Shown: piece after piece, positions 42,419-54,338 of the stretch
Position numbering within the stretch: position 1 is the stretch's first letter
How the letters are laid out: the number at the start of each line of letters is the position of its first letter
Origin: Candidatus Atabeyarchaeum deiterrae
Lineage (GTDB): Archaea > Asgardarchaeota > Atabeyarchaeia > Atabeyarchaeales > Atabeyarchaeaceae
NCBI GenBank assembly: GCA_037310415.1
Contig: CP147780.1
Span: forward strand, 704,001 to 768,000
Reading direction: 5' to 3'
DNA length: 64,000 bases
Notes under the pieces: model-generated
Database searches by the model: none
What the model saw: the letters and a program-made list of their open reading frames with translations, nothing else
What the model was told of the DNA's origin: nothing
Made by a program: the position numbers and the translations under genes

Positions 42419-43390
42419 TTAATGGATCATTCCACTTCCAATACTTACGAAGCGGGCAAGTAATGCACTGAGCTGTATTTCTTCATTTGCGCCTTGACCC
42501 AAGCGGAAATCGGTTTCCCCCACATAATCGATTAGCTTCACTTTCTCAGGTTCAGGAATCTTCAAATTGAAGATCTCCCGGTGTATCTGTTTAATCACAT
42601 CGGTTCCTGAGAGACCGTAGTTTATGAGCAATTCGTGTAGCATATCTCTGGCTTCCATGAATTTACCGCTTAGAGTACACTGAAGCATTTTGAGAATCTC
42701 TTCAGGTCTAGCTCTACTAGCAACTTTGAAGACAACCTCCTCGCTAATTGCAGCTCCCACCGCGGAAGCTCCTTGTAGAGTGTTTATTGCTCTTCTAAGG
42801 TCGCCTCCAGATACATAGAGAATCGCTTTCAAACCTGTTTCGTCCAACTTCACGGATTCCTTTTCAGCAATAGTCTTCAATCTCAAAGCAACGTCTTTTT
42901 CCTTCAGGGGACCGAAACGGAAAACAGCGCATCTACTCTGTATGGGTTCAATAATCTTACTTGAATAATTGCATAGGAGTGCAAAGCGGCAGTTTCTGGC
43001 ATATCGCTCCATAGTTCTACGCAGAGCATTTTGTGCATCGGATGTCACTGCGTCCGCCTCATCCAAGACTATGATCTTGAAAGGTACGTCGCTGATGGGA
43101 ATAGTTCTCGCGAAATCCTTGATCCTAGTTCTGACGACATTTATGCCTCGTTCATCACTAGCATTTAACTCGAGAATGTTGCCCTCAACGCGTCCCTTGT
43201 ACAAGTCATTGGCAAGCGCGAGAACGGCTGTGGTCTTCCCTGTTCCAGGTGGCCCAGCGAACAACAGGTGGGGAACATTCCTTTCCTTAACGAACATTCT
43301 GAGACGCTCAACTATTTCTTTCTGATTCGTTATCTCTGAAAGACTACGGGGGCGGTACTTCTCTGTCCACAACGGAGACTCGTCACTCAT
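42419..43390 (-). CDS. rfcS: replication factor C small subunit (no intein)
   Basis: [30 protein letters not shown]. Confidence 0.97.
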
Positions 43391-43895
43391 CTGCCACAAC
43401 CTCGCACCAATTTGGATCGGAACTACTTATGACGACATGCAGTACATCTATTGACGAAATAACTCGGAGTTGAATTCTGGTTAACTGTAGTTAGGGAGCT
43501 CGTAATTAAGCTTTCAGATAGCTCACAAGTAGCATGGTTGTTCAGGATCTAATTGTGCTCACATCTTTTTGAACTTCCCAGAGAAAACTAGAACACTGTC
43601 ACGAGAAATCCGCCTTGTTTTCTGCAAATGTCCCATACTGCAGAGCTTTATTAGAGAAAACAGCTTAGACCTGATTGCCTCGAAACCAATCAGAGGTTAT
43701 ACTTTACAAATTAACAGACTTCTCAGAGATTTGCTCTTCTGCCTACTTAATCGTTTCAGCAGGCATGTCACAATCACAGGGTAGTCCCATGACCTCCTTC
43801 ATCAGCTAGTCGAGCTTTCTCGCCTCCCAAAAAGGGATAAGGCTGTTAAGGGAATAGAATCACGCAGTCCATGTTGTTTCTGCAGGTGTTCATGT

Positions 43896-44618
43896 TTGCT
43901 CTTGGATATCAGCTTACTACTATACACAATTGGGTTTCTCAGCTTCGCCTCCCTCTACATCTTTCTCAAAAGCGCTGGAGATGGTGAGATTACTATTGGA
44001 GGAAGGTTCGCCTCGAGAATGCCTCTCGCCCTATTATTGTTCATCAAGGCAGTACCTGCTGGACTCGCAGGACTCTTCGTCTATGTGTTCCGCCCCTCCT
44101 CGTCCTTGTTCTATCTCCTCATGGTCTTCGCCCTCATCCTGTGTCTTCTTGGCGATGTCGGGAAGGGAATCGGTCTGCTACCAGGGATTGGGTTGTTCGC
44201 TCTCGCCCACGTCACCTTAATAACCGCGTTCGTCTCCCAGAGTCTCAAGTTCGGTCTAACATTTACGGGAATCGCCCTGGTAATTGGCCTCTTTGCCATA
44301 ATGCTGGTCTATGTCTACATGTTGTATAGGTATCTTCAATCCTCAAAGAAAGGATTGGGTCGACTGCGCATAGCTGTGCTATTCTATTCACTCTTGATCT
44401 CAATTATGTTCTGCACCAGTGTTCTACTAAGCTGGTTATATGGAAACCCAGCGGGCGCTTTAATTGGCGTCGCCGCCTTCCTCTTTGTCGTATCAGATTC
44501 ATTGATTGCAGTCAAAGAGTTTCATCACAAATTCTCAAAAGCCGAACTAAAGATCCTCGGCGCGTACTACTCCGCGATCTTCCTCTTCTCGCTAAGCATA
44601 TTTGTCTTCGCCTCCTGA
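43896..44618 (+). CDS. YhhN/TMEM86 family lysoplasmalogenase-like membrane hydrolase
   Basis: About 8 TM; IKAVP, LLGDV, LFALAH, FY...I..M, LFVVSDSLIA, YYSA; both conserved Asp present. Confidence 0.85.
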   Translation: MLLDISLLLYTIGFLSFASLYIFLKSAGDGEITIGGRFASRMPLALLLFIKAVPAGLAGLFVYVFRPSSSLFYLLMVFALILCLLGDVGKGIGLLPGIGLFALAHVTLITAFVSQSLKFGLTFTGIALVIGLFAIMLVYVYMLYRYLQSSKKGLGRLRIAVLFYSLLISIMFCTSVLLSWLYGNPAGALIGVAAFLFVVSDSLIAVKEFHHKFSKAELKILGAYYSAIFLFSLSIFVFAS

Positions 44619-44758
44619 AGCCTGATGGTGGACGTGAAAGGCGATCGGATCATGCGCTAAATCTCAGGTGTTTGAGATTATCAAAAGAGGAGGCAGAGAT
44701 GATGAGAAGAACAAGACGGAAGCCGTTTTAGCTACATGTTGGATGAGCGATCTTTTTC

Positions 44759-46255
44759 TTACTCATTGTCCAATGTCTTAGGTCGGAAGTCTCCGATGTG
44801 ATAGAACTTCGGGCAACAGAAATAGGGGGTCCAGTACTTGGCTCCAGGCGGCCACCCGCTAGATTTTCTACCTCCGAAAGGCAACGTGATATCTTGGTAC
44901 TGAGGGTCTTCGTTTATGAAGGCGATTGCCACATCTATCTTCTTAACTATTCTCATGGCGAGTTCTGTGTCTTCACAGTATATTCCTGTGCGCATTCCGT
45001 ACTGAGTGTCATTGGCAAGTTGCACTGCCTCATCTACTGTTTCGAATTCCAGTATGCTTCTGGCGGAGCCGAATGATTCTTCCATCCACATAAATGGTTT
45101 CTCAACCATACTTTGTGCTCGGACGCGTTTCTTATCTAGTTTTATGAGTGTTGGAGGATAGAATGGGTCTTCCCTTTTGCCTCCCATCAGTAGTTGTCCA
45201 CCTTTCTTTAGGGCATCTTGGACCATGAAATCTATTGTGTCGATGATCTTTTTGCTTCCTAATGGGCCTATCTCAGTTTCAGGATCCATCGGGTCACCGA
45301 TTTTCAGTTTCGAAGCTTTGTCAACAATTTTGTCCGCAAGGTTCTTCGCAATGTCTTTGTGGGCTAGTATTCTCTTCATGGAAAAACATTGTTGTCCACT
45401 GTTGGTGAAACTGCCTCTCACCACCATGTCAGCGACTTTGTCCACGTCGACATCGTTCATAATAATGCCCGAGTCATTTCCTGCCATCTCGAACAGCAAC
45501 AACTTGAACTTGCCGTTGATGAACAGGCCTCCGTCAAAGAATGGCATCTTCATGGCGGTGGATTCCATGTACTTCCCGTAGTCTATCAGCAGTTTCTTGC
45601 CAACGTGGCTGCTTCCGATGAAGGCGAACAGATCGATGAGTGGATTCGATATGAATTCATTAGTTGCTTCGTCCCCAGGCATCAGACAGATTTCTGTGCT
45701 TTCAACTGCTGGAATGCCTTCAACTTCAGAGGCTATCTCTAGCACCTTCAGGGGTGTTAGAGGAACAGCACTGGAGGGTTTGACTATTACACTGTCGCCA
45801 GCTAGCCAAGCGGCGCCGATAGTGTACATTGGTAGGCTCATTGGAGTGTTTCTTGGTGACAAACCGGAGACCAGACCTATTGGCTCATATGTCATTATGT
45901 TTTTTCCTGAGATTGCTTCGACTTCTTTGTCTCTTATCATATCGGCTTGGACATCACAGGTAAGGTAGCCGTGTTGTATCATGCCACAGTCCCATCTTGC
46001 GTATTTGTAGGGCAGTCCTCCTTCCTTTACAATTAGCTCTACAAGCTCCTTCTTGTGCATTCTAACTGCTCTGCCGACTTTTCGTATGAACTCGATTCGT
46101 TCGCCTAAGTCGGTCTTCCTCATCTTTTCCTTAGCATCACTAGCCTTCTTGATCTTCTCCCTGAGCGTCTCAATATTGTCGGCCTGAATCTCCCGTATTA
46201 CCTCACCAGTGTACTTGTTTCTGACAGATAATGTGGTTGAGCCAGTCATTCGCAA
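44759..46255 (-). CDS. NAD(P)-dependent aldehyde dehydrogenase
   Basis: PRNTP, VKPSS, FIGSSHVG, FEMAGND (catalytic Glu), NSGQQC (catalytic Cys), EESFG, PFGGRKSSG. Confidence 0.92.
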   Translation of the reverse strand: MRMTGSTTLSVRNKYTGEVIREIQADNIETLREKIKKASDAKEKMRKTDLGERIEFIRKVGRAVRMHKKELVELIVKEGGLPYKYARWDCGMIQHGYLTCDVQADMIRDKEVEAISGKNIMTYEPIGLVSGLSPRNTPMSLPMYTIGAAWLAGDSVIVKPSSAVPLTPLKVLEIASEVEGIPAVESTEICLMPGDEATNEFISNPLIDLFAFIGSSHVGKKLLIDYGKYMESTAMKMPFFDGGLFINGKFKLLLFEMAGNDSGIIMNDVDVDKVADMVVRGSFTNSGQQCFSMKRILAHKDIAKNLADKIVDKASKLKIGDPMDPETEIGPLGSKKIIDTIDFMVQDALKKGGQLLMGGKREDPFYPPTLIKLDKKRVRAQSMVEKPFMWMEESFGSARSILEFETVDEAVQLANDTQYGMRTGIYCEDTELAMRIVKKIDVAIAFINEDPQYQDITLPFGGRKSSGWPPGAKYWTPYFCCPKFYHIGDFRPKTLDNE

Positions 46256-46541
46256 AACCCCTTGAAATCAGCATAATTGCCTGTTGCAGTTTTTCCTTAT
46301 TTGTTCTGAATTAGTTGAGCTTCTCGCCCTATGGAGCAGAGGAACAAGTCAAACCTCAAGTTTGACATTCGACGTTGGGTCAGAATAAAAACGTGTCTCC
46401 AAGGTACTCCATAAGAATCGACAATAACCGAATTGAGGCTACACGAATATATTAAAAGCGAATACAGGGTGATCGTTACGCAAGAACTGTAATAAGAAGC
46501 TAACCTTCGTAGAGGGTCCAACAGTTGGCAGGTGTTAGAGT

Positions 46542-47945
46542 TTGACTGAATCGGAAGCAGTCTATGATGAACTTGAGAGCATCGTGGGAAGCGGCAATAT
46601 TAGCAATGATGAGGTGATCCTGCTCTCTTACAGCGAGGATTCAAGCCCATTTCCATCTCGAAAACCTGCGGTTGTTGTGAGACCTAGTGAAGCAGGCGAA
46701 GTAGCTGAAATCATGAAGATCGCCAACAGAATGAAGCTTCCGGTTGTTCCTACGGGCGGGAGAAGTAGCATAAGTGGAGCTCCCATACCAAGAGTTCCCA
46801 ATGCAATAATGCTTGATTTAACCAAAATGGAAAAAGTCAAGGAAATAGATGAAGACGCTCTCACCGTGACAGTTCAGTGCGGAGTAAGATGGGCTCAACT
46901 GATACACGAGCTGAACCTGAGGGGATACAAGCTTGGGTTTAGAGGTCCGTATGGAGGCAATGCTGGAACTGTCGGGGGTTCGCTGAGTGTTAATTCAGTT
47001 GGGTGTGGCGCAAGTAAATGGGGTGGAGCTTGTAACAGTGTCGTGAGCATAGAGGTCGTATTACCAACAGGAGAAGTGATCAAGACTGGAAGCGGCTGGA
47101 GTTCAGCAGCGAAAAGGTTCGCGAGGTACGCGACTTTCAATGACCTAACTGGCATTTTCTTGGGCGATCACGGAACCCTAGGAGTCAAGACCGAAGCAAC
47201 CCTGAAAATATATCCTCTGTCGAAAGGTCTTGCCTATGCTGATTACGGATTCAACAACCTCCGTGATTGCGTGAGTGCATTTCATGAGATTCAGAAGTTG
47301 GGAATACCTGAAGAAATCATAATGCTTGGAGACAAGGCATCAATTGGGATGCTGGCTGAAACCTATCTTGAGACATTTCCGGATCTAGAATGCGTTTTTG
47401 CTGTTGCAATCGAAGAGATCGACAGCGTCATCTCTGAGAGAAAAAAAGCTATCTGTGATGAGATAGCGAAGAGGCATGGCGGTAAGGCACTTGGTTCATT
47501 TCTGACGAGGGTACATTGGTTGGACATGTTCAACATGACTCAGCCTCTTTTCGACTCAGGCTTTTGGTTCAACACTTGCCATATTAGACCGATTTCAACG
47601 TTGCGAGATACGATAGAAGATGCGTTAAGTCTGTTCAAGAGGGAGAAAATAGATGAGAAAGGCATGAAGTGGATCATAAGCGCTCTGGGCGTTGATAGAT
47701 GCTATAGCACAGCCTGGATAACGCTATTTGAAGGCGACCCGAGCAGACGCGATGACCTCAAAAGGGTATGGAACCAACTCAAGGAAATGGAACTGGAAAA
47801 CGGAGGAGTCCCCTACTGGACTGGATTGCTCTGGGAACCTCATGTATTGCCGAGGCTTGGTAAGGGATTCTACTCGGTTCTGAAAAGGATCAAGAGCGTT
47901 ATTGACCCGAATTCCATACTACATCCGTTGACTTTCGATTTGTGA
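46542..47945 (+). CDS. VAO/PCMH-family FAD-linked oxidoreductase (GlcD/AGPS-like fold)
   Basis: PAVVVRP, PTGGRSS, TVGG, EVVLPTG, GDHGTLGV.TEA, IK..IDPNSILHP. Confidence 0.88.
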   Translation: MTESEAVYDELESIVGSGNISNDEVILLSYSEDSSPFPSRKPAVVVRPSEAGEVAEIMKIANRMKLPVVPTGGRSSISGAPIPRVPNAIMLDLTKMEKVKEIDEDALTVTVQCGVRWAQLIHELNLRGYKLGFRGPYGGNAGTVGGSLSVNSVGCGASKWGGACNSVVSIEVVLPTGEVIKTGSGWSSAAKRFARYATFNDLTGIFLGDHGTLGVKTEATLKIYPLSKGLAYADYGFNNLRDCVSAFHEIQKLGIPEEIIMLGDKASIGMLAETYLETFPDLECVFAVAIEEIDSVISERKKAICDEIAKRHGGKALGSFLTRVHWLDMFNMTQPLFDSGFWFNTCHIRPISTLRDTIEDALSLFKREKIDEKGMKWIISALGVDRCYSTAWITLFEGDPSRRDDLKRVWNQLKEMELENGGVPYWTGLLWEPHVLPRLGKGFYSVLKRIKSVIDPNSILHPLTFDL

Positions 47946-49585
47946 GAGTGAATGGCTTGTCTTATCCATCATTGAATGAGCACTTACGCCAGATCCAGAA
48001 GTGCGCTAAATGTGGTGACTGCGCTTACTCTGTAAAGCTAACGACTGCAAGAAAGCCAATATCAATGCCGTGCGCTGTAAGAAATGTGCTCGGATTCGAA
48101 GCCTACGATGCGCGTGGTAGAATAATAGTCCTAAAACGGCTTTTGGAAGGAAAGGTTGACGTAGACGAAAGATTCCTCGACTGGGTCTACACGTGCACCA
48201 CATGCGCAAACTGCAAAGAAACATGTCTTGCAGTTCCAGGAGGGATCGACACTCCCTCAATGATCGAGGCGCTAAGGAAAGACCTCGTTAACCAAGGGGT
48301 AACAATTGAAAAGCAAGTTAGCTTGAAGGAATTGACGTCAACTCGACACAATCCTTACGGCGAACCCCATTCTGACAGAAGAAACTTCCTCAAAGGAGAA
48401 AAGCTGCCCAGACAGGCTAAGACGGTTCTCTTTGTGGGTTGCACACCATCCTACAGACAGCAAAGCATCGCGGAGGCAACAGTAAAACTGCTGAAGCATG
48501 CCGGCGAAGACTTCACCTTGATGCAGGATGAATGGTGCTGTGGCTCTGTTTTGCTTAGACTAGGATATGAAGATCTTGGAAGAGAAGTAATGCACCACAA
48601 CATTAACGAAATCAAGAACTCAGGCGCACAAACTATTGTGACGCCTTGTGCTGGTTGTTACAGGGCGTTCAAAGAGGAATATCAGAGGCTAAATGAGAAA
48701 GAAGGTTCAGAGTATAAGGTCCTTCATGCGACTGAATTGCTTGATCAACTCACTGAGAAGGGGAAGATTGCATTCTCAACAAAGAAACACATTAGAGTGA
48801 CTTATCATGACCCTTGCCATCTAGGCAGATATGGAGGCGTATATGAATCTCCCAGAAGATTGATTGACAAGATCAAAGGTGCCGAACTTGTCGAAATGAA
48901 GACAAACAGAAGTTATGCTCATTGTTGTGGCGCAGGCGGAGGAGTGAGATCGACTCACCCTGCTCTTGCTAGCCAAGTTTCAAGGCAGAGAATATCTGAG
49001 GCATTGGAAGTCAACTCTGCTCTGCTGCTAACAGCATGCCCATTCTGCAAAACGAATTTAACAGACGGGTCAAACGGATTAATCAAAGTCGCTGATATGG
49101 TTGAGTACCTGGCAGACAACATCAGTGCGGAAACAACAGGAAAAGATGCCGCTCCCGAAATTTCTCAGGCAAGAGGGCCAGCAGGTAAAGAATTTCCACG
49201 ATACTTAGAGCAGCACCCAGAAATCTTCGAGGACCTGGCTCAAGATTCAATACTTGACTTCACCACGTTCAACTCATGGAATTCCTTCGACAAAGGAGAG
49301 AAACCTTTGAACGTGTTCAACGTTAGAAGAGCCAAAGTTGGAATAGAAATAAAACCGGGGCGCGCTGAGAGAGCGGACGTTGCGTTGAATTTCTCGCCCG
49401 AAACAATAGAAGATCTAATCGCAAGTAGGGACAGAGACGAATACGCAAAGAAATTCGGCCGGTTCTACAACGAGCCTTCCGAAATAAAATGGATAGACTT
49501 CATTTTGAACAAGAGCACAAAGACCCTGATAAGAATGGGGTACGGCAAATTCGCAAGAGAAGCAGGAATACTCGAAGAAGACTAG
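47942..49585 (+). CDS. HdrD/GlpC-type Fe-S oxidoreductase (2x[4Fe-4S], two CCG domains) with C-terminal SCP2-like domain
   Basis: CAKCGDC, CTTCANCKETC, WCCGS, CAGC, YHDPCHLGR, HCCGAGG, ACPFC; GTGA overlap with the upstream gene. Confidence 0.88.
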   Translation: MRVNGLSYPSLNEHLRQIQKCAKCGDCAYSVKLTTARKPISMPCAVRNVLGFEAYDARGRIIVLKRLLEGKVDVDERFLDWVYTCTTCANCKETCLAVPGGIDTPSMIEALRKDLVNQGVTIEKQVSLKELTSTRHNPYGEPHSDRRNFLKGEKLPRQAKTVLFVGCTPSYRQQSIAEATVKLLKHAGEDFTLMQDEWCCGSVLLRLGYEDLGREVMHHNINEIKNSGAQTIVTPCAGCYRAFKEEYQRLNEKEGSEYKVLHATELLDQLTEKGKIAFSTKKHIRVTYHDPCHLGRYGGVYESPRRLIDKIKGAELVEMKTNRSYAHCCGAGGGVRSTHPALASQVSRQRISEALEVNSALLLTACPFCKTNLTDGSNGLIKVADMVEYLADNISAETTGKDAAPEISQARGPAGKEFPRYLEQHPEIFEDLAQDSILDFTTFNSWNSFDKGEKPLNVFNVRRAKVGIEIKPGRAERADVALNFSPETIEDLIASRDRDEYAKKFGRFYNEPSEIKWIDFILNKSTKTLIRMGYGKFAREAGILEED

Positions 49586-49675
49586 ACTCCACCAGCCAAC
49601 CATGCGAGTGGGAACGAAGACTCCGATAATAATGATGTGAGAAGTCAGTCCTTCGTTTCTTACTGGCTATACCAC

Positions 49676-50143
49676 CTATCCCATGAAATTGTATCTTTTT
49701 GCCCACTCTCGATATCCGGCTTTCCAGAGTGTAATCTTGCTTTTGTTCACCTTGTAGTCAAGATCACGGGTTCCAGATCCTTCCTTCAAGATCTTTGAAT
49801 AATTCTCGTAGTATTTCTTTGCATCTGGGGAGGACGATATCAGCTCCATAATCGCTTCGTCTGTGAAATACAAGATCAGGTCTGGAGTCTCCGACGCTGA
49901 TCCGACTCCGAGTTCAAGATTGTCTTCGCTAGCTTTCTTCAGGTGGAACAGAAGCTTCTCATTATCGTCTAAGGTAGGGCTTCTTATGTGGTATTCCCAT
50001 ATTGCGCCAACACTCAGACCCCTCATCAGGTCTAAGTGATTCGGATAGTACCCCTTAACCAACTTCAGTAATTCCCCGGGTATCAGTGATTTCACTTTTT
50101 TCTTCTGTTCGACACTCACTTTCGAGCACCACACGTTAGCCAA
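49676..50143 (-). CDS. hypothetical protein, divergent SCP2-like domain homologous to the C-terminus of 47942-49585
   Basis: Visible alignment: PDLILYFTDEAIMELI vs ADVALNFSPETIEDLI; NKSKITLWKAGY vs NKSTKTLIRMGY. Confidence 0.7.
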   Translation of the reverse strand: MANVWCSKVSVEQKKKVKSLIPGELLKLVKGYYPNHLDLMRGLSVGAIWEYHIRSPTLDDNEKLLFHLKKASEDNLELGVGSASETPDLILYFTDEAIMELISSSPDAKKYYENYSKILKEGSGTRDLDYKVNKSKITLWKAGYREWAKRYNFMG

Positions 50144-50247
50144 AGCTATAGTCTCTCTAAAACAGGGTTAAATACAAAAAAGGAAAGAAGTTGGGGATAG
50201 CGACTGCTAAACTATTGAAGGTCGCACTGTTCAGTTTTGTTTGGCCC

Positions 50248-50622
50248 TTAGGATCTGACGGCTTCTAGAATTGTTCTGAACTTGATCGCGTCTGGGAGTG
50301 GTCCTTGGATCCTCAGCTGTCCACCCATGTATGCAGAAGTAGCATCGATCTCGCCTTTCAGCATACCACTGAAGGTTGCGGTGTCGGCCTCTAGGGTGAT
50401 GTCGGCTGAAGAGTGGGTTCCTGCATTTGGGCCGCTTGCTTTCTTTGCCTTGAACTCGACATAGAATGGTGATCCGTCGCTTACGGCGAATTGCATAACA
50501 CGATCCCAGTCTTCAAGTTCAGCCTGCGCAGCAGAGGATTTGTTGATTCCTGTAACTAGCTGAGTGACTGCGTCCATCAACGGTGAACCTTTTCCTGCTG
50601 GTTTCGCTGGTTTCTTTGACAT
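50248..50622 (-). CDS. SCP2 sterol/lipid carrier protein
   Basis: ADITL..D..TF..ML.GEIDATSAYMGGQLRIQG is the canonical SCP2 signature. Confidence 0.92.
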   Translation of the reverse strand: MSKKPAKPAGKGSPLMDAVTQLVTGINKSSAAQAELEDWDRVMQFAVSDGSPFYVEFKAKKASGPNAGTHSSADITLEADTATFSGMLKGEIDATSAYMGGQLRIQGPLPDAIKFRTILEAVRS

Positions 50623-50844
50623 TTTTACCTAGTTCCTCCTTTTTCTGTTGAGTTAAAACTTCAAAACCATGTATAAATAGATTCCTAGGTGCTAAATAAA
50701 GGTTAAGCCCATACCTTATAAGCACACTATTGGCTTGCCTAATAAGGCAATTGGGTAATGGAATAGATGTGGCAAACTCATAGATGATAGAGAAATACCG
50801 CGTTTCTGAGATCTCGCGAGTTAGAACACTCCCTTCTAATGTCT

Positions 50845-52026
50845 CTATATGATCTTCTCCCTCTGAAGCCTCTTGATCTCGTCTTTGGTCAAACCAACTA
50901 CACTAGTGAGTATCTCCTCCGTTTGTTCGCCGAGTTCTGGTGGTGGACTTCTAATACTTCCCGGTGTTTCTGAGAGTTTTATGGGGATTCCAATCTGCTT
51001 GATTATACCAGCAACTGGGTGCTCAATCTCCACAATCATATTCCTATGACGTGTCTGAGGGTCTTTGAATACATCCTCGACCGAGTTTACTGGTCCGCAA
51101 GGCACATCAGCGACGTTAAGAATCCTGATCCACTCGGCAAGAGTTTTGGTCTTGAATGCCTGTCCAAGGGATGAGAACAGTTTTGCCTGCTCACTTGGGT
51201 TCATGAAGTTAATATTGGATAGGTCCTCTCTTCTCAGTGCTTTACATAGATTCTTCCAAAACCATTCTTCAAGGATTCCCAGCGTTAGACACTTGCCATC
51301 CGCAGTTTCATAGACATTGTACGCAGCGAGTGCACCTGAAAGCATCATCTTGCCACGTTGAGGCGACTTACCTTCTCCAAAGTATTCGGCCGCGTGAATT
51401 GTGAGCCAAGAGACTACTCCATCAAACATAGAAACATCCACAAACTGTCCCAACCCCGTTTTCATCCTAGCGATTATAGCGGTCAATATCGAAGTTAGGG
51501 CTAGCATCCCGCCCCCGCCGATATCTGCTATTTGGACACCTGGAACAACTGGAAGTCCGTCTTTCTGACCAGTGATTCCGAGTACCCCTGCATACCCAAT
51601 GTAGTTTATGTCGTGACCAGGAAGATCCCTGTAAGGGCCATCCTGACCGTAACCCGATATCGCACAGTATATCAACCGTGGATTGGCAGCCTTCAACTCA
51701 CCATATCCGATTCCAAGTCTCTTCGCTACGCCGGGTCTGAAGCTTTCCAATACGACATCTGACTTTGACGCCAACTTGATGAAGATCTCTCTGCCTTCTC
51801 TGGATTTCAAATTCAGAGTCAGACTTTTCTTGTTACGGTTGAGCACCAGGTAGCGATAGCTCTTTCCGCGAATCAATGGTGGTACCCAGCGTATGTAGTC
51901 GCCGAAACCCGGTTCCTCGATCTTAATCACTTCGGCTCCTAGATCTGCTAGCATGAGAGAGCAGTATGGTCCAGGCAGCAAGCGCGATAGATCCAATACA
52001 CGGATGCCTTCAAGTGGTAATGGCAT
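50845..52026 (-). CDS. family III CoA transferase / alpha-methylacyl-CoA racemase (CaiB/BaiF)
   Basis: LEGIRVLDLSRLLPGP, LNRNKKS, FRPGV, GHDINY (AMACR-type), ADIGGG. Confidence 0.92.
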   Translation of the reverse strand: MPLPLEGIRVLDLSRLLPGPYCSLMLADLGAEVIKIEEPGFGDYIRWVPPLIRGKSYRYLVLNRNKKSLTLNLKSREGREIFIKLASKSDVVLESFRPGVAKRLGIGYGELKAANPRLIYCAISGYGQDGPYRDLPGHDINYIGYAGVLGITGQKDGLPVVPGVQIADIGGGGMLALTSILTAIIARMKTGLGQFVDVSMFDGVVSWLTIHAAEYFGEGKSPQRGKMMLSGALAAYNVYETADGKCLTLGILEEWFWKNLCKALRREDLSNINFMNPSEQAKLFSSLGQAFKTKTLAEWIRILNVADVPCGPVNSVEDVFKDPQTRHRNMIVEIEHPVAGIIKQIGIPIKLSETPGSIRSPPPELGEQTEEILTSVVGLTKDEIKRLQREKII

Positions 52027-52198
52027 GATTTCGAGACACCTCTAAGACAATCGGTTGAACAACCTGATTGTTCCTAAACTATCTTAAGGAGAACTCTGCT
52101 CAGTTAGATTTATCTGTCGGCAATGATGGCAATGAATTGATTCTTCCAGATATGGTTTAGCGGAATGTTCTTCCGCGTCAGTCACTGAAAAGGGAGAC

Positions 52199-52408
52199 AT
52201 GTTGGACGTATTTAAGGTGCTTGGAAAGAAAGCAAAACTAGTTGACCAAGAATACGCGAGCATCGAGTACGGAAAAAAGAAGGCTATGCAGTTTGCATCA
52301 GAAAGCAAGGGTGTGTTGAATAAGGACATAACATCGTATTTCAAATCAAGCTCAGCTGAAAACAGATTATCTGAACTTGCCGATTCCGTAATAAACGGGG
52401 AGTTCTAA
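52199..52408 (+). CDS. small hypothetical protein or gene remnant
   Basis: 69-aa ORF with an upstream GGGAG; protein-like composition but no recognisable motif. Confidence 0.3.
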   Translation: MLDVFKVLGKKAKLVDQEYASIEYGKKKAMQFASESKGVLNKDITSYFKSSSAENRLSELADSVINGEF

Positions 52409-52451
52409 GAAGAAAAAGAGGTTGGCAGTTATTTCATCTGTGATCAGTCTC

Positions 52452-53267
52452 TCATAGTCCTTGAACAAACCACTGCCAAGCGATCGGGACGACGACTCCG
52501 ATCTGAACTAGTATTATGAAGATCACCAAGGTTGTCAACATCGGGACCGTGATATTGTCGATTCCGAATGGCGTTATTGCCTCTATTATCGTGGCCGTGA
52601 AAGCAGCTATCAGTGCGATCTCAAACATAAGGAGAACGGAGAGCCCAGGTGAAACGTAGTCCGGTCGTATAATAGGTACTATTGAATTGAAGTAGAACAT
52701 TGTTGCTAGAGATGCAAGGAATCCAAACACAAAGAGAGTTACCGAGCCAACAACGCTTCGAGTGCAACCCATGACCTCATACTGGCTGCTGCTGCCAAAC
52801 CGTTTGCCCATGAGGCAGGCCAGGCCGTCTCCCCAGATCATTATCTCGATTCCGATTGCGCCTATGAAGAAGTATGGGTAGTACGACCCATACCCGAATG
52901 CTGAAACAAGTGTTGCAATCGAGATTATATACAAAAGAGGTCCTATGATGTGCCCTTTCTTACGATCCATGTCTCTCGCCATCGAATCGAACATGTCTCG
53001 AAATGGCTTGACACGGCTCTTTGGGGTCAGTAAAAGCACAAAGATCGCTAGTACCCAAGGTGCTATTGATACAGCCCAAGCATGTTGATAAAGTGGCCAC
53101 GTGAGAATAGCATTTCCAGCTCCCATATGAACGATTTTTCTTGAGATATCAGATTTCTTGGAACCACTTCTTCTTTTCAGGATCATGCCTAGTCCTATGA
53201 CCACAAACACATAAACGAATGTTACCAAGAGCGCCAATATGTCATTTGGAAAGATGCTATCAGACAA
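52452..53267 (-). CDS. CTP-dependent isoprenoid alcohol kinase (phytol/farnesol/dolichol kinase; VTE5/SEC59/DGK1 family)
   Basis: SRKIVH, GPLLY, WGDGLA..GKRFG, RS..GS, DNITVP; multi-TM. Confidence 0.85.
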   Translation of the reverse strand: MSDSIFPNDILALLVTFVYVFVVIGLGMILKRRSGSKKSDISRKIVHMGAGNAILTWPLYQHAWAVSIAPWVLAIFVLLLTPKSRVKPFRDMFDSMARDMDRKKGHIIGPLLYIISIATLVSAFGYGSYYPYFFIGAIGIEIMIWGDGLACLMGKRFGSSSQYEVMGCTRSVVGSVTLFVFGFLASLATMFYFNSIVPIIRPDYVSPGLSVLLMFEIALIAAFTATIIEAITPFGIDNITVPMLTTLVIFIILVQIGVVVPIAWQWFVQGL

Positions 53268-53591: not shown

Positions 53592-54338
53592 ATGTCAGAT
53601 TCATTAACGAATGAGTACGAGGATTTAGCTCAAGGGATAGCCGGGGAAATGACGCTTTCTGACGAACCAGGAAGAGTAATGAAGAAATGGAGAGAGAAAT
53701 TCCAAGTTCCGCAGAAAGATCTCGCTGAGTACCTTACCATTTCTCCTTCAGTCATAAGTGACTACGAAAGCGGAAGACGAATGTCCCCTAGAGTGGAGAC
53801 GATAAGAAAGTTCGTCGATGGGTTACTGCTTCTGGATCACAGAAGGGGAAGCCCAGTCTCGAAAGGTCTCAAGAGAGTTGTAGGAACAGGAATACCCAGC
53901 GACATCCTACTTGATCTGAGGAAGTTCCTTGTACCCATGAAAGTAAAAGAGTTCTGTGAATGTCTCCATTGCAAGATCGTCGTAGGGAAAGACTTCACTG
54001 GCAGAGAGATCTGGGGCTACACAGCAATAAACAGCGTGGCTGCAATACTCAGGCTTGACGTCAAGCAACTGCTTGAACTATATCGCCAGACTATTGATGG
54101 CTCGTCGATCTTTACAAATGTGACGACCGGAAGGTCGCCACTAGTCGCAATCAAAAGCAGCCAGATAGGGTTTAGAAACAAGTCGAAACCAACACTCATA
54201 GTACTACATGGGCTTGACCCGAACAAAGTGGACATCGTAGCGTTGAAAATAGCCGAAGCTGAGGAGATTCCCCTGGCCGTATCAACGATAAAAGGCGTGG
54301 ATGAACTAGTCAGGACACTACGAAACATCAATCCATAA
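53592..54338 (+). CDS. XRE-HTH regulator (archaeal COG1709-like)
   Basis: IAGEMTLS..PG..MKKWRE.F, SVISDYESGRR, FTNVTTGRSP.VAI. Confidence 0.88.
   Translation: MSDSLTNEYEDLAQGIAGEMTLSDEPGRVMKKWREKFQVPQKDLAEYLTISPSVISDYESGRRMSPRVETIRKFVDGLLLLDHRRGSPVSKGLKRVVGTGIPSDILLDLRKFLVPMKVKEFCECLHCKIVVGKDFTGREIWGYTAINSVAAILRLDVKQLLELYRQTIDGSSIFTNVTTGRSPLVAIKSSQIGFRNKSKPTLIVLHGLDPNKVDIVALKIAEAEEIPLAVSTIKGVDELVRTLRNINP

Follow-up and report, generated by a model that had tools for sequence, protein, structure and literature searches.

A module of four genes, encoding a VAO/PCMH-type flavoprotein, an iron-sulfur (Fe-S) protein of the CCG type with a fused C-terminal SCP2-like domain (CCG::SCP2-like protein), an aldehyde dehydrogenase (ALDH) and a free SCP2-like protein, is a functional unit that is conserved across Asgard archaea and has been gained, lost and rearranged together. 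It was recognized in a 64,000-nucleotide (nt) stretch, hereafter the window, of the genome of Candidatus Atabeyarchaeum deiterrae (contig CP147780.1, positions 704,001 to 768,000), where it lies within positions 43896-53267. This source genome is closed, has a size of 2.76 Mb and belongs to a member of Atabeyarchaeia (Asgard) from wetland soil. We tentatively favour, with slightly less than even confidence, a reading in which the module oxidizes a hydrophobic, probably isoprenoid, alcohol via the aldehyde to the acid in an oxygen-independent manner, with the SCP2-like carriers holding the substrate. The module is described below from its protein families, their folds, the loss of known catalytic motifs, synteny and co-loss, followed by the neighbouring genes and by the other functions that the same locus might serve.

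Conservation and co-loss of the four-gene module

All genes of the cluster were mapped onto approximately 50 loci surrounding matches to the SCP2-like proteins, which represent ten Asgard families (labelled f1, f7 and so on). Only four genes, those of the flavoprotein, the CCG::SCP2-like protein, ALDH and the free SCP2-like protein, travel together through these loci, and the module is syntenic in eight of the ten families despite rearrangements. The flavoprotein and CCG::SCP2-like genes, where present, are always neighbours, and full-length orthologues of the fusion were detected in nine families out of ten. In the window, the start of the CCG gene overlaps the stop of the flavoprotein gene by 4 bases, and the two genes are predicted to be translationally coupled. 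The ALDH gene was found beside SCP2-like genes in eight families and in three different arrangements, with f1, f18 and f7 having it in divergent orientation to the flavoprotein gene, f9, f24 and f26 having it after the CCG gene, and f14 having it before the flavoprotein gene and collinear with it; in f14 the trio is adjoined by subunits of a 2-oxoacid:ferredoxin oxidoreductase. In f24, f26 and part of f9, all four genes are collinear in the order flavoprotein, CCG::SCP2-like protein, ALDH and free SCP2-like protein. The free SCP2-like gene follows that of ALDH, with gaps mostly of 2-84 nt.

In most genomes of the Lokiarchaeia-type family f9, both the flavoprotein and the Fe-S part are gone, and the operon consists of a short-chain dehydrogenase/reductase (SDR), a first SCP2-like gene, ALDH and a second SCP2-like gene, in this order. 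In particular, loci L037-L046 and L056-L058 have, in front of ALDH, a separate gene of about 156 codons for the SCP2-like domain that the CCG protein of the window carries at its C-terminus; fission or fusion of a domain inside a single operon is clearly exemplified here.

Losses of the module genes also coincide. The genome G002, assigned to the same family as the source genome and 94% complete, lacks orthologues of both the flavoprotein and ALDH genome-wide. At the corresponding site (locus L014, G002:C81:5800-25700), there is no YhhN, ALDH or flavoprotein gene, the CCG gene is N-terminally truncated, beginning at query residue 56, and directly adjoins the RFC gene, while the free SCP2-like gene, the canonical SCP2, CaiB and the kinase-family gene are retained. 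The closed genome G037 is devoid of the flavoprotein, the fused CCG protein and ALDH, all three of which are present in four of its congeners. G010 (f9, 99% complete) has kept the ALDH orthologue in the absence of the flavoprotein orthologue. The statement on co-loss rests on four genomes.

Because they are retained through rearrangement, domain fusion or fission and joint loss, the four genes are regarded as a functional unit. An earlier note on this DNA had proposed that eight genes of the segment form one pathway of lipid breakdown; across Asgard archaea, the part of this proposal that stood is the grouping of the FAD/Fe-S pair (FAD, flavin adenine dinucleotide) with ALDH and the SCP2-like proteins, a real unit linked in eight of the ten families and jointly lost, but the full set of eight is not a conserved pathway and was seen only in Atabeyarchaeia.

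The flavoprotein, its Fe-S partner and the aldehyde dehydrogenase

The FAD-binding half of the flavoprotein matches GlcD, D-lactate dehydrogenase (D-LDH) and alkyl-dihydroxyacetonephosphate synthase (AGPS) about equally, and the C-terminal cap domain fits its Pfam model weakly. The predicted structure (pLDDT, the predicted local distance difference test score, of 86.7) gave Foldseek template-modelling (TM) scores of 0.80-0.82 to mouse LDHD and of 0.84-0.85 to AGPS (22-23% identity). Orthologues sharing 45-84% identity occur in Atabey-, Loki-, Hel-, Thor-, Sigyn-, Hod- and Hermodarchaeota, and almost all of them are labelled as Asgard. In D-LDH-type enzymes, the Glu-His of the GEHG motif and further His metal ligands hold the 2-hydroxyacid. 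A profile alignment placed the mouse LDHD sequence CTGEHGIG opposite the clade consensus VPYWTGKL, the region of His405 is not conserved, and the VPYW(T/N)G motif is invariant within the flavoprotein clade; a paralogue from the same genome, par2599, keeps AEHGAG. In the family alignment, PYW occupies the place of the AGPS HHH loop, and LGVD that of its SHxY motif. Since the residues that define the 2-hydroxyacid dehydrogenases and AGPS were absent when tested, the flavoprotein is placed outside both families, and its alignments indicate a divergent, Asgard-restricted subfamily of VAO/PCMH enzymes with a probably remodelled active site. The suggestion that it is not an ordinary lactate or glycolate enzyme was thereby upheld, with GEHG aligned to YWTG.

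The CCG protein has intact CxxCxxC motifs for two 4Fe-4S clusters and both CCG signatures in its translation. Its nearest relatives are TfrB, LdhH and GlpC-type proteins, all matches being below the cut-off of every named equivalog, including a TfrB-like match with an E-value of 6e-63 that is under the family cut-off; it can be classified as a putative Fe-S protein of the HdrD/GlcF/TfrB-like type. The ALDH is encoded by the sole ALDH gene of this genome, and its residues Asn136, Glu256 and Cys290 are invariant in 20 orthologues. The best-matching structures are those of lactaldehyde dehydrogenase, GAPN and betaine aldehyde dehydrogenases, and no ALDH3-type entry was present among the PDB matches at E <= 1e-40, a ranking that carries no information on chain-length preference.

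These similarities are the basis for considering an ordinary small-molecule route, in which ALDH would act on lactaldehyde or glycolaldehyde, the FAD/Fe-S pair on D-lactate or glycolate in the manner of GlcDEF or of Dld with an HdrD-like partner, and the extra domain would be structural. Such a function is consistent with the identity of the nearest models and structures (GlcD, D-LDH and LctD for the flavoprotein, lactaldehyde dehydrogenase for ALDH), with the six other FAD/CCG pairs of the genome and with the 2-oxoacid:ferredoxin oxidoreductase subunits beside the trio in f14. The scores, however, are far under the curated cut-offs (124 bits versus 568 for the TIGR00387 glcD model and 280 bits versus 650 for the lactaldehyde dehydrogenase model), neither the Glu-His of GEHG nor the mouse D-LDH His405 region is conserved, whereas the paralogue in the same genome keeps EHG, and two SCP2-like modules are kept together with the enzymes phylum-wide. 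As the flavoprotein is devoid of the catalytic residues of D-lactate and glycolate dehydrogenases, small 2-hydroxyacids are unlikely substrates, and we consider the small-molecule route distinctly improbable.

Overall, the source genome (G000) contains seven VAO-type flavoprotein genes, most of them paired with one of about 14 genes for CCG-domain proteins. The pair in the window is the only one with an SCP2-like extension, and another pair, located near 803-806 kb, adjoins an acyl-CoA dehydrogenase gene. One paralogue outside the window (L086:4028-5464, minus strand, corresponding to G000:C1:2554027-2555463) is AGPS-like: its best PDB match is the alkyl-DHAP synthase of Dictyostelium (4e-63), its SHHHS aligns to the AGPS sequence SHHHG, and the SHxY motif is kept. 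A CCG protein gene (L086:2873-4012) is located immediately downstream of it. An AGPS-like enzyme in an Asgard archaeon deserves attention of its own.

The SCP2-like carriers

The free protein of 155 amino acids has a homologue in the C-terminal ~150 residues of the CCG protein (29% identity, E-value of 2e-10), and neither of the two yielded a Pfam or NCBIfam match up to E = 10. Their affiliation became apparent from predicted structure. The model of the free protein (pLDDT 84.5) retrieved SCP2, SCP2-like or UbiJ entries as all of its top 13 PDB matches, with a probability of 1.00, E-values down to 4e-6 and TM-scores of 0.4-0.6, and in the ESM Atlas it matched Asgard-only clusters, including one CCG-fused form, as well as SCP2 clusters (TM-scores of 0.52-0.58). 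The family was detected in 184 of 400 Asgard genomes and, when 1.84 billion representative proteins were searched exhaustively with a profile, 42 members were recovered; no resemblance to UbiJ or UbiT was detectable at the sequence level. These matches of predicted structures indicate a small, Asgard-restricted family of the SCP2 fold, and bear out the SCP2-like domain that had been noticed both in fused form and as a free copy. The predicted fold supports a role of the SCP2-like proteins as lipid carriers.

The dehydrogenase of Lokiarchaeia-type operons

The SDR mentioned above is an extended member of the epimerase family (NAD-type) that heads the f9 operons, including those from genomes without an orthologue of the flavoprotein. 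Its closest solved structure is annotated as "putative oxidoreductase", and an orthologue was not found in the source genome. Apparently, this enzyme can replace the FAD/Fe-S pair in many Lokiarchaeia, and because it serves there without the pair, the first step of the module is suggested to be a plain alcohol dehydrogenation.

In the same Lokiarchaeia-type loci, a gene divergent from the operon-heading SDR encodes a methyltransferase of ~185 amino acids with a match to the DOT1 histone-methyltransferase family (PF08123, 9e-11; L041:11482-12039, plus strand), with homologues in 15 loci of this type.

Proposed function of the module

The following scheme is our inference as to which class of substrate is used, in which direction the reaction runs and where the electrons go. 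The SCP2-like domains would hold a water-insoluble substrate, most likely a free prenol with an isoprenoid tail, such as geranylgeraniol, phytol or polyprenol/dolichol. The flavoprotein would take two electrons from the alcohol group, a step for which oxygen would not be needed, and the Fe-S/CCG subunit would relay these electrons to an acceptor, for example a disulfide or a chain linked to ferredoxin. The resulting aldehyde would be handed over to ALDH, yielding the acid. In Atabeyarchaeia, the kinase-family protein encoded nearby may provide a competing salvage route for the same alcohol, and the racemase-type CaiB enzyme, together with SCP2, could feed a methyl-branched acid to beta-oxidation genes located elsewhere, in this one lineage only.

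Several observations weigh against this scheme. The ALDH is nearest, at ~30% identity, to lactaldehyde dehydrogenase and GAPN and not to fatty aldehyde dehydrogenases. Thorarchaeia keep the flavoprotein and the CCG::SCP2-like protein without an orthologous ALDH, so an aldehyde destined for oxidation may not be the product in every case, and Fe-S subunits of the HdrD/TfrB-like type can also run reductively. The SCP2 fold is no proof of lipid binding, because SCP2-like domains of alkylsulfatases and of a methyltransferase are also among the fold matches. Three neighbours in the window have no general link to the module: the canonical SCP2 adjoins it only in three Atabeyarchaeia genomes, the CaiB orthologues of six other families (42-57% identity) have no SCP2 or module gene within 1.5 kb, and the YhhN family, present in 229 of 400 Asgard genomes, was never found near the module in the ~50 loci. 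Finally, related genomes are not independent samples.

The kinase-family neighbour and the glycosylation genes of Thorarchaeia

Among the neighbours of the module, the gene of a multi-pass membrane protein of 271 amino acids is one that recurs outside Atabeyarchaeia. The predicted structure of this protein has TM-scores of 0.76-0.77 to diacylglycerol/polyprenol-kinase clusters, and its homologues go by "phytol kinase" or "dolichol kinase" in public annotation; the Pfam kinase model (PF01148) matched none of six members of the family, NCBIfam likewise yielded no match for the protein, and a sequence search of the PDB was empty. The CTP-binding motif of dolichol kinase has been described as DxxAxxxGxxxG-x8-KKTxEG (PMC13586052). 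In the 271-residue family, the first half of this motif (D147-G-L-A-x3-G-x3-G) is invariant, and the second half reads (T)RSxxGS, not KKTxEG. The gene is located beside the module in f18 and f7, at a distance of ~3 kb in f1, and at 6-23 kb in Thorarchaeia, across a glycosylation island. The earlier identification of a phytol-kinase-like membrane protein is supported by predicted structure, by the names of homologues and by its recurrence near the module in four families.

In 12 Thorarchaeia loci, the flavoprotein/CCG::SCP2-like pair is placed between Alg14/Alg13 genes and a block of GT2, GT1 and GT4 glycosyltransferases with a UDP-GlcNAc 2-epimerase, and this adjacency survives local rearrangement in loci L051 and L060. 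Such neighbours work with polyprenyl or dolichyl carriers. Judged by gene content, the recurring neighbours point to polyprenol/dolichol-type lipids and not to ether lipids.

The island itself is variable in Thorarchaeia loci L019, L020, L048-L054, L059 and L060, comprising GT2, GT1, GT4, UDP-GlcNAc 2-epimerase and ATP-grasp genes, and it is bracketed by Alg14/Alg13 with the flavoprotein/CCG::SCP2-like pair on one side and by the kinase-family gene on the other.

The Thorarchaeia context raises the question of whether the module has a role in carrier-lipid or glycan metabolism rather than in catabolism. The FAD/Fe-S::SCP2-like enzyme would then act on a polyprenyl or dolichyl compound of protein glycosylation, and the kinase-family protein would make the phosphorylated carrier. 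Two forms of such a role can be envisaged. In the first, polyprenol would be oxidized to polyprenal as a step towards dolichol, as in the eukaryotic DHRSX/SRD5A3 route; a three-step sequence from polyprenol through polyprenal and dolichal to dolichol has been described (PMC13586052). In the second, a polyprenyl-phosphate sugar would be oxidized as by DprE1, with the SDR as a DprE2-like partner. The position of the pair amid Alg14/Alg13 and glycosyltransferase genes in the 12 loci, the kinase-family gene closing the island and also occurring near the module in f1, f18 and f7, the absence of an orthologous ALDH from Thorarchaeia, the epimerase-family extended SDR at the head of Lokiarchaeia-type operons and a weak match of the flavoprotein to DprE1 (4e-8) are all consistent with a carrier-lipid role. 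Nevertheless, the tight coupling to ALDH in eight of ten families suits an acid product better than a transient aldehyde, Thorarchaeia represent one family, so that their shared context may be inherited, a reductase for the alpha double bond was not seen in the module, and the DprE1 match is confined to the FAD-binding domain, which is superfamily-wide. We regard the carrier-lipid role as fairly unlikely.

The oxidation of a free isoprenoid alcohol could also be embedded in a wider control of its fate. The FAD/Fe-S enzyme of Asgard archaea would then be a dehydrogenase of polyprenol (or of dolichol/phytol) that works independently of oxygen and has its SCP2-like carrier built in. Acting with ALDH and a polyprenol kinase, and in some lineages also with SCP2 and a racemase like AMACR, it would decide between recycling to the phosphorylated carrier and oxidation or breakdown, and would parallel, on the archaeal side, the polyprenal/dolichol and peroxisomal phytol pathways of eukaryotes. 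Taken as a whole, this extended picture is speculative and receives a low probability.

Neighbours restricted to one lineage

The CaiB enzyme, a member of the family III CoA-transferase fold, carries the AMACR-type GHDINY motif that had been recorded for it before. GHDINY and ADIGGGG align to residues 125-130 and 155-160 of Mycobacterium tuberculosis MCR, with His126 and Asp156 conserved; the GHDINY motif is conserved in the CaiB orthologues, and the Asgard paralogues share GYD with transferases. For the active-site core, the best matches are FAR and MCR of M. tuberculosis, and in the full-length PDB ranking SUGCT (258 bits) and formyl-CoA-transferase-like proteins precede FAR (195 bits) and MCR (185 bits). 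From these alignments, the enzyme appears racemase-like (AMACR/MCR) at its active site. A racemase for 2-methyl-branched acyl-CoA would suit isoprenoid acids, and the genome encodes ten acyl-CoA dehydrogenases and seven enoyl-CoA hydratases.

A CaiB-SCP2 pair was also considered as a conserved module in its own right and was rejected, as SCP2 is absent from the 1.5 kb around CaiB in 16 loci of other families. The canonical SCP2 of the window shows a weak match to UbiT. One contig from a wetland RNA library spans positions 50195-50658, covering the SCP2 gene and ~50 nt on each side, with a depth of 70, far above that of the few other covered pieces, which indicates its presence in the RNA library only. 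In this small metatranscriptome, contigs cover only SCP2 and part of the kinase-family gene, three other runs gave nothing, and the data are too thin for an assessment of co-expression or of the genes without coverage.

The YhhN gene is absent from the same site in the sister genomes G001 and G002 and was rejected as a pathway member on the basis of synteny; it is probably a chance neighbour, adjoining the module in this genome only. Given that CaiB, SCP2 and YhhN are unlinked to the module elsewhere, the eight-gene set is a feature of one lineage and, where YhhN is concerned, of one genome.

These results bear on the pathway that the earlier note had outlined, in which the FAD/Fe-S pair oxidizes an alkyl-glycerol ether anaerobically, YhhN hydrolyses the vinyl ether, ALDH forms the acid, CaiB activates or racemizes it, and the kinase salvages the prenol. 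All eight families are indeed present, the flavoprotein fold is as close to AGPS (TM-scores given above) as to D-LDH, the CaiB enzyme has the His/Asp pair of MCR, and the conserved pairing would agree with the release of an aldehyde that ALDH then converts. On the other hand, YhhN is missing from the site in the sister genus and unlinked to the module in all loci, CaiB and SCP2 are unlinked outside one family, the catalytic HHH loop of AGPS is absent from the flavoprotein, and an alcohol substrate is the more plausible one in view of the SDR that takes the place of the pair in Lokiarchaeia. No feature distinguishes the oxidation of an ether from that of a simple alcohol. The memberships of YhhN and of CaiB in a conserved pathway were consequently abandoned, and nothing specific to ether cleavage or to a plasmalogen or archaeol substrate was found, the neighbours suggesting lipids of the polyprenol/dolichol type instead. 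The ether pathway is considered very improbable.

Gene content of the locus

The segment 43896-53267 contains nine open reading frames (ORFs), eight of which correspond to the gene families listed previously; all eight were recovered at the positions reported for them (Table 1). The ninth, a doubtful ORF of 86 codons, had no match in Pfam or NCBIfam and no tblastn match in the sister genomes, and G001 carries an unrelated ORF of 379 codons at its site.

Table 1. Genes of the cluster and flanking genes, with coordinates in the window and supporting matches (aa, amino acids).
Feature	Coordinates	Strand	Supporting match or remark
RFC small subunit (flank)	42419-43399		
YhhN/TMEM86-family membrane protein	43896-44618	+	PF07947, 85.6 bits, model positions 3-182 of 182
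Aldehyde dehydrogenase (ALDH)	44759-46255	-	PF00171, 299.6 bits; divergent from flavoprotein gene
VAO/PCMH-type flavoprotein (FAD_binding_4)	46542-47945	+	PF01565, 126 bits
Fe-S (CCG) protein, Fer4 and two CCG domains, fused C-terminal SCP2-like domain	47942-49585	+	PF02754, 129.8 bits, two stretches; Fer4_8
Fused SCP2-like domain of CCG protein	~49180-49582	+	Homology to free 155-aa protein
Free SCP2-like protein, 155 aa	49676-50143	-	Predicted fold; no Pfam model
Canonical SCP2	50248-50622	-	PF02036, 51.4 bits
CaiB / CoA_transf_3 (family III CoA-transferase-fold)	50845-52026	-	PF02515, 396 bits
Doubtful 86-aa ORF between CaiB and kinase-family gene	52084-52344	-	No family match
271-aa multi-pass membrane protein, polyprenol/phytol/dolichol-kinase family (putative)	52452-53267	-	Structural match; no Pfam match
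HTH_3 regulator (flank)	53592-54338		

Significance and comparison with known systems

To our knowledge, almost no enzymes of archaeal isoprenoid-lipid turnover are known. The synthesis, remodelling and degradation of membrane and carrier lipids in Asgard archaea matter both for the "lipid divide" and for the question of how eukaryotic lipid handling arose. The present analysis tells a phylum-wide four-gene module apart from lineage-specific neighbours and provides a short list of proteins for direct substrate tests. If the extended picture of a polyprenol (or dolichol/phytol) dehydrogenase is true, the module would give enzymology a first access to the turnover of isoprenoid lipids in the archaea most closely related to eukaryotes, and if the substrate is of the polyprenol, dolichol or phytol type, it would represent an anaerobic analogue of steps known only from eukaryotes. 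A small acid as substrate would leave the presence of the SCP2-like fusion unexplained. The paper describing Atabeyarchaeia genomes (PMC11291895) does not mention the cluster, and the module was not found in the literature on Asgard archaea combined with SCP2 and these enzymes or on anaerobic cleavage of archaeol and ethers.

By analogy, the module may work like a dehydrogenase of the GlcDEF/Dld type joined to the logic of eukaryotic fatty-alcohol and phytol oxidation, with carriers that recall UbiJ/UbiT. GlcDEF and the FAD-dependent D-lactate dehydrogenases (LDHD, LctD, and Dld with an HdrD-like partner) likewise combine a VAO/PCMH flavoprotein with a two-CCG Fe-S protein. The module differs from them in that the Glu-His of GEHG and the other metal ligands are replaced, the scores are far under the family cut-offs, the Fe-S subunit bears an SCP2-like domain, and the pair is coupled to ALDH and to a second SCP2-like protein. 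AGPS shares the VAO fold of the flavoprotein and handles long-chain alcohols, whereas the flavoprotein is devoid of its HHH loop and SHxY motif, and AGPS itself works without an Fe-S partner, its reaction involving no net redox change.

The oxidation of fatty alcohols and phytol in eukaryotes, by an alcohol dehydrogenase and the fatty aldehyde dehydrogenase FALDH (ALDH3A2), with SCP2/SCPx, MFE-2 and AMACR, is similar in outline to the proposed scheme, leading from a hydrophobic alcohol to aldehyde to acid with SCP2-type carriers. In contrast, the first enzyme of the module would be an FAD/Fe-S, oxygen-independent one, its ALDH is not of the ALDH3 type according to nearest matches, and the links to a racemase and to SCP2 are confined to one lineage. 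UbiJ and UbiT, accessory factors of ubiquinone biosynthesis, provide a setting comparable to the one proposed for the module, in which a protein of the SCP2 fold presents a polyprenyl lipid to soluble redox enzymes, and UbiJ is among the fold matches of the SCP2-like proteins; ubiquinone pathway genes, however, are absent from the module. The decaprenylphosphoryl-ribose epimerase DprE1/DprE2 is another comparable system, consisting of a VAO flavoprotein that acts on a polyprenyl-linked substrate and an SDR partner, and Lokiarchaeia-type operons also start with an SDR gene. The match to DprE1 is nonetheless weak (4e-8, FAD-binding domain only, compared with a cut-off of 500 bits), and DprE1 has no Fe-S partner, ALDH or SCP2 module. 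Finally, the 271-residue neighbour resembles VTE5 and dolichol kinase in predicted fold (TM-scores of 0.76-0.77), in the names given to its homologues and in the DxxAxxxGxxxG half of the CTP motif, but differs from them in having no PF01148 match and RSxxGS in place of KKTxEG.

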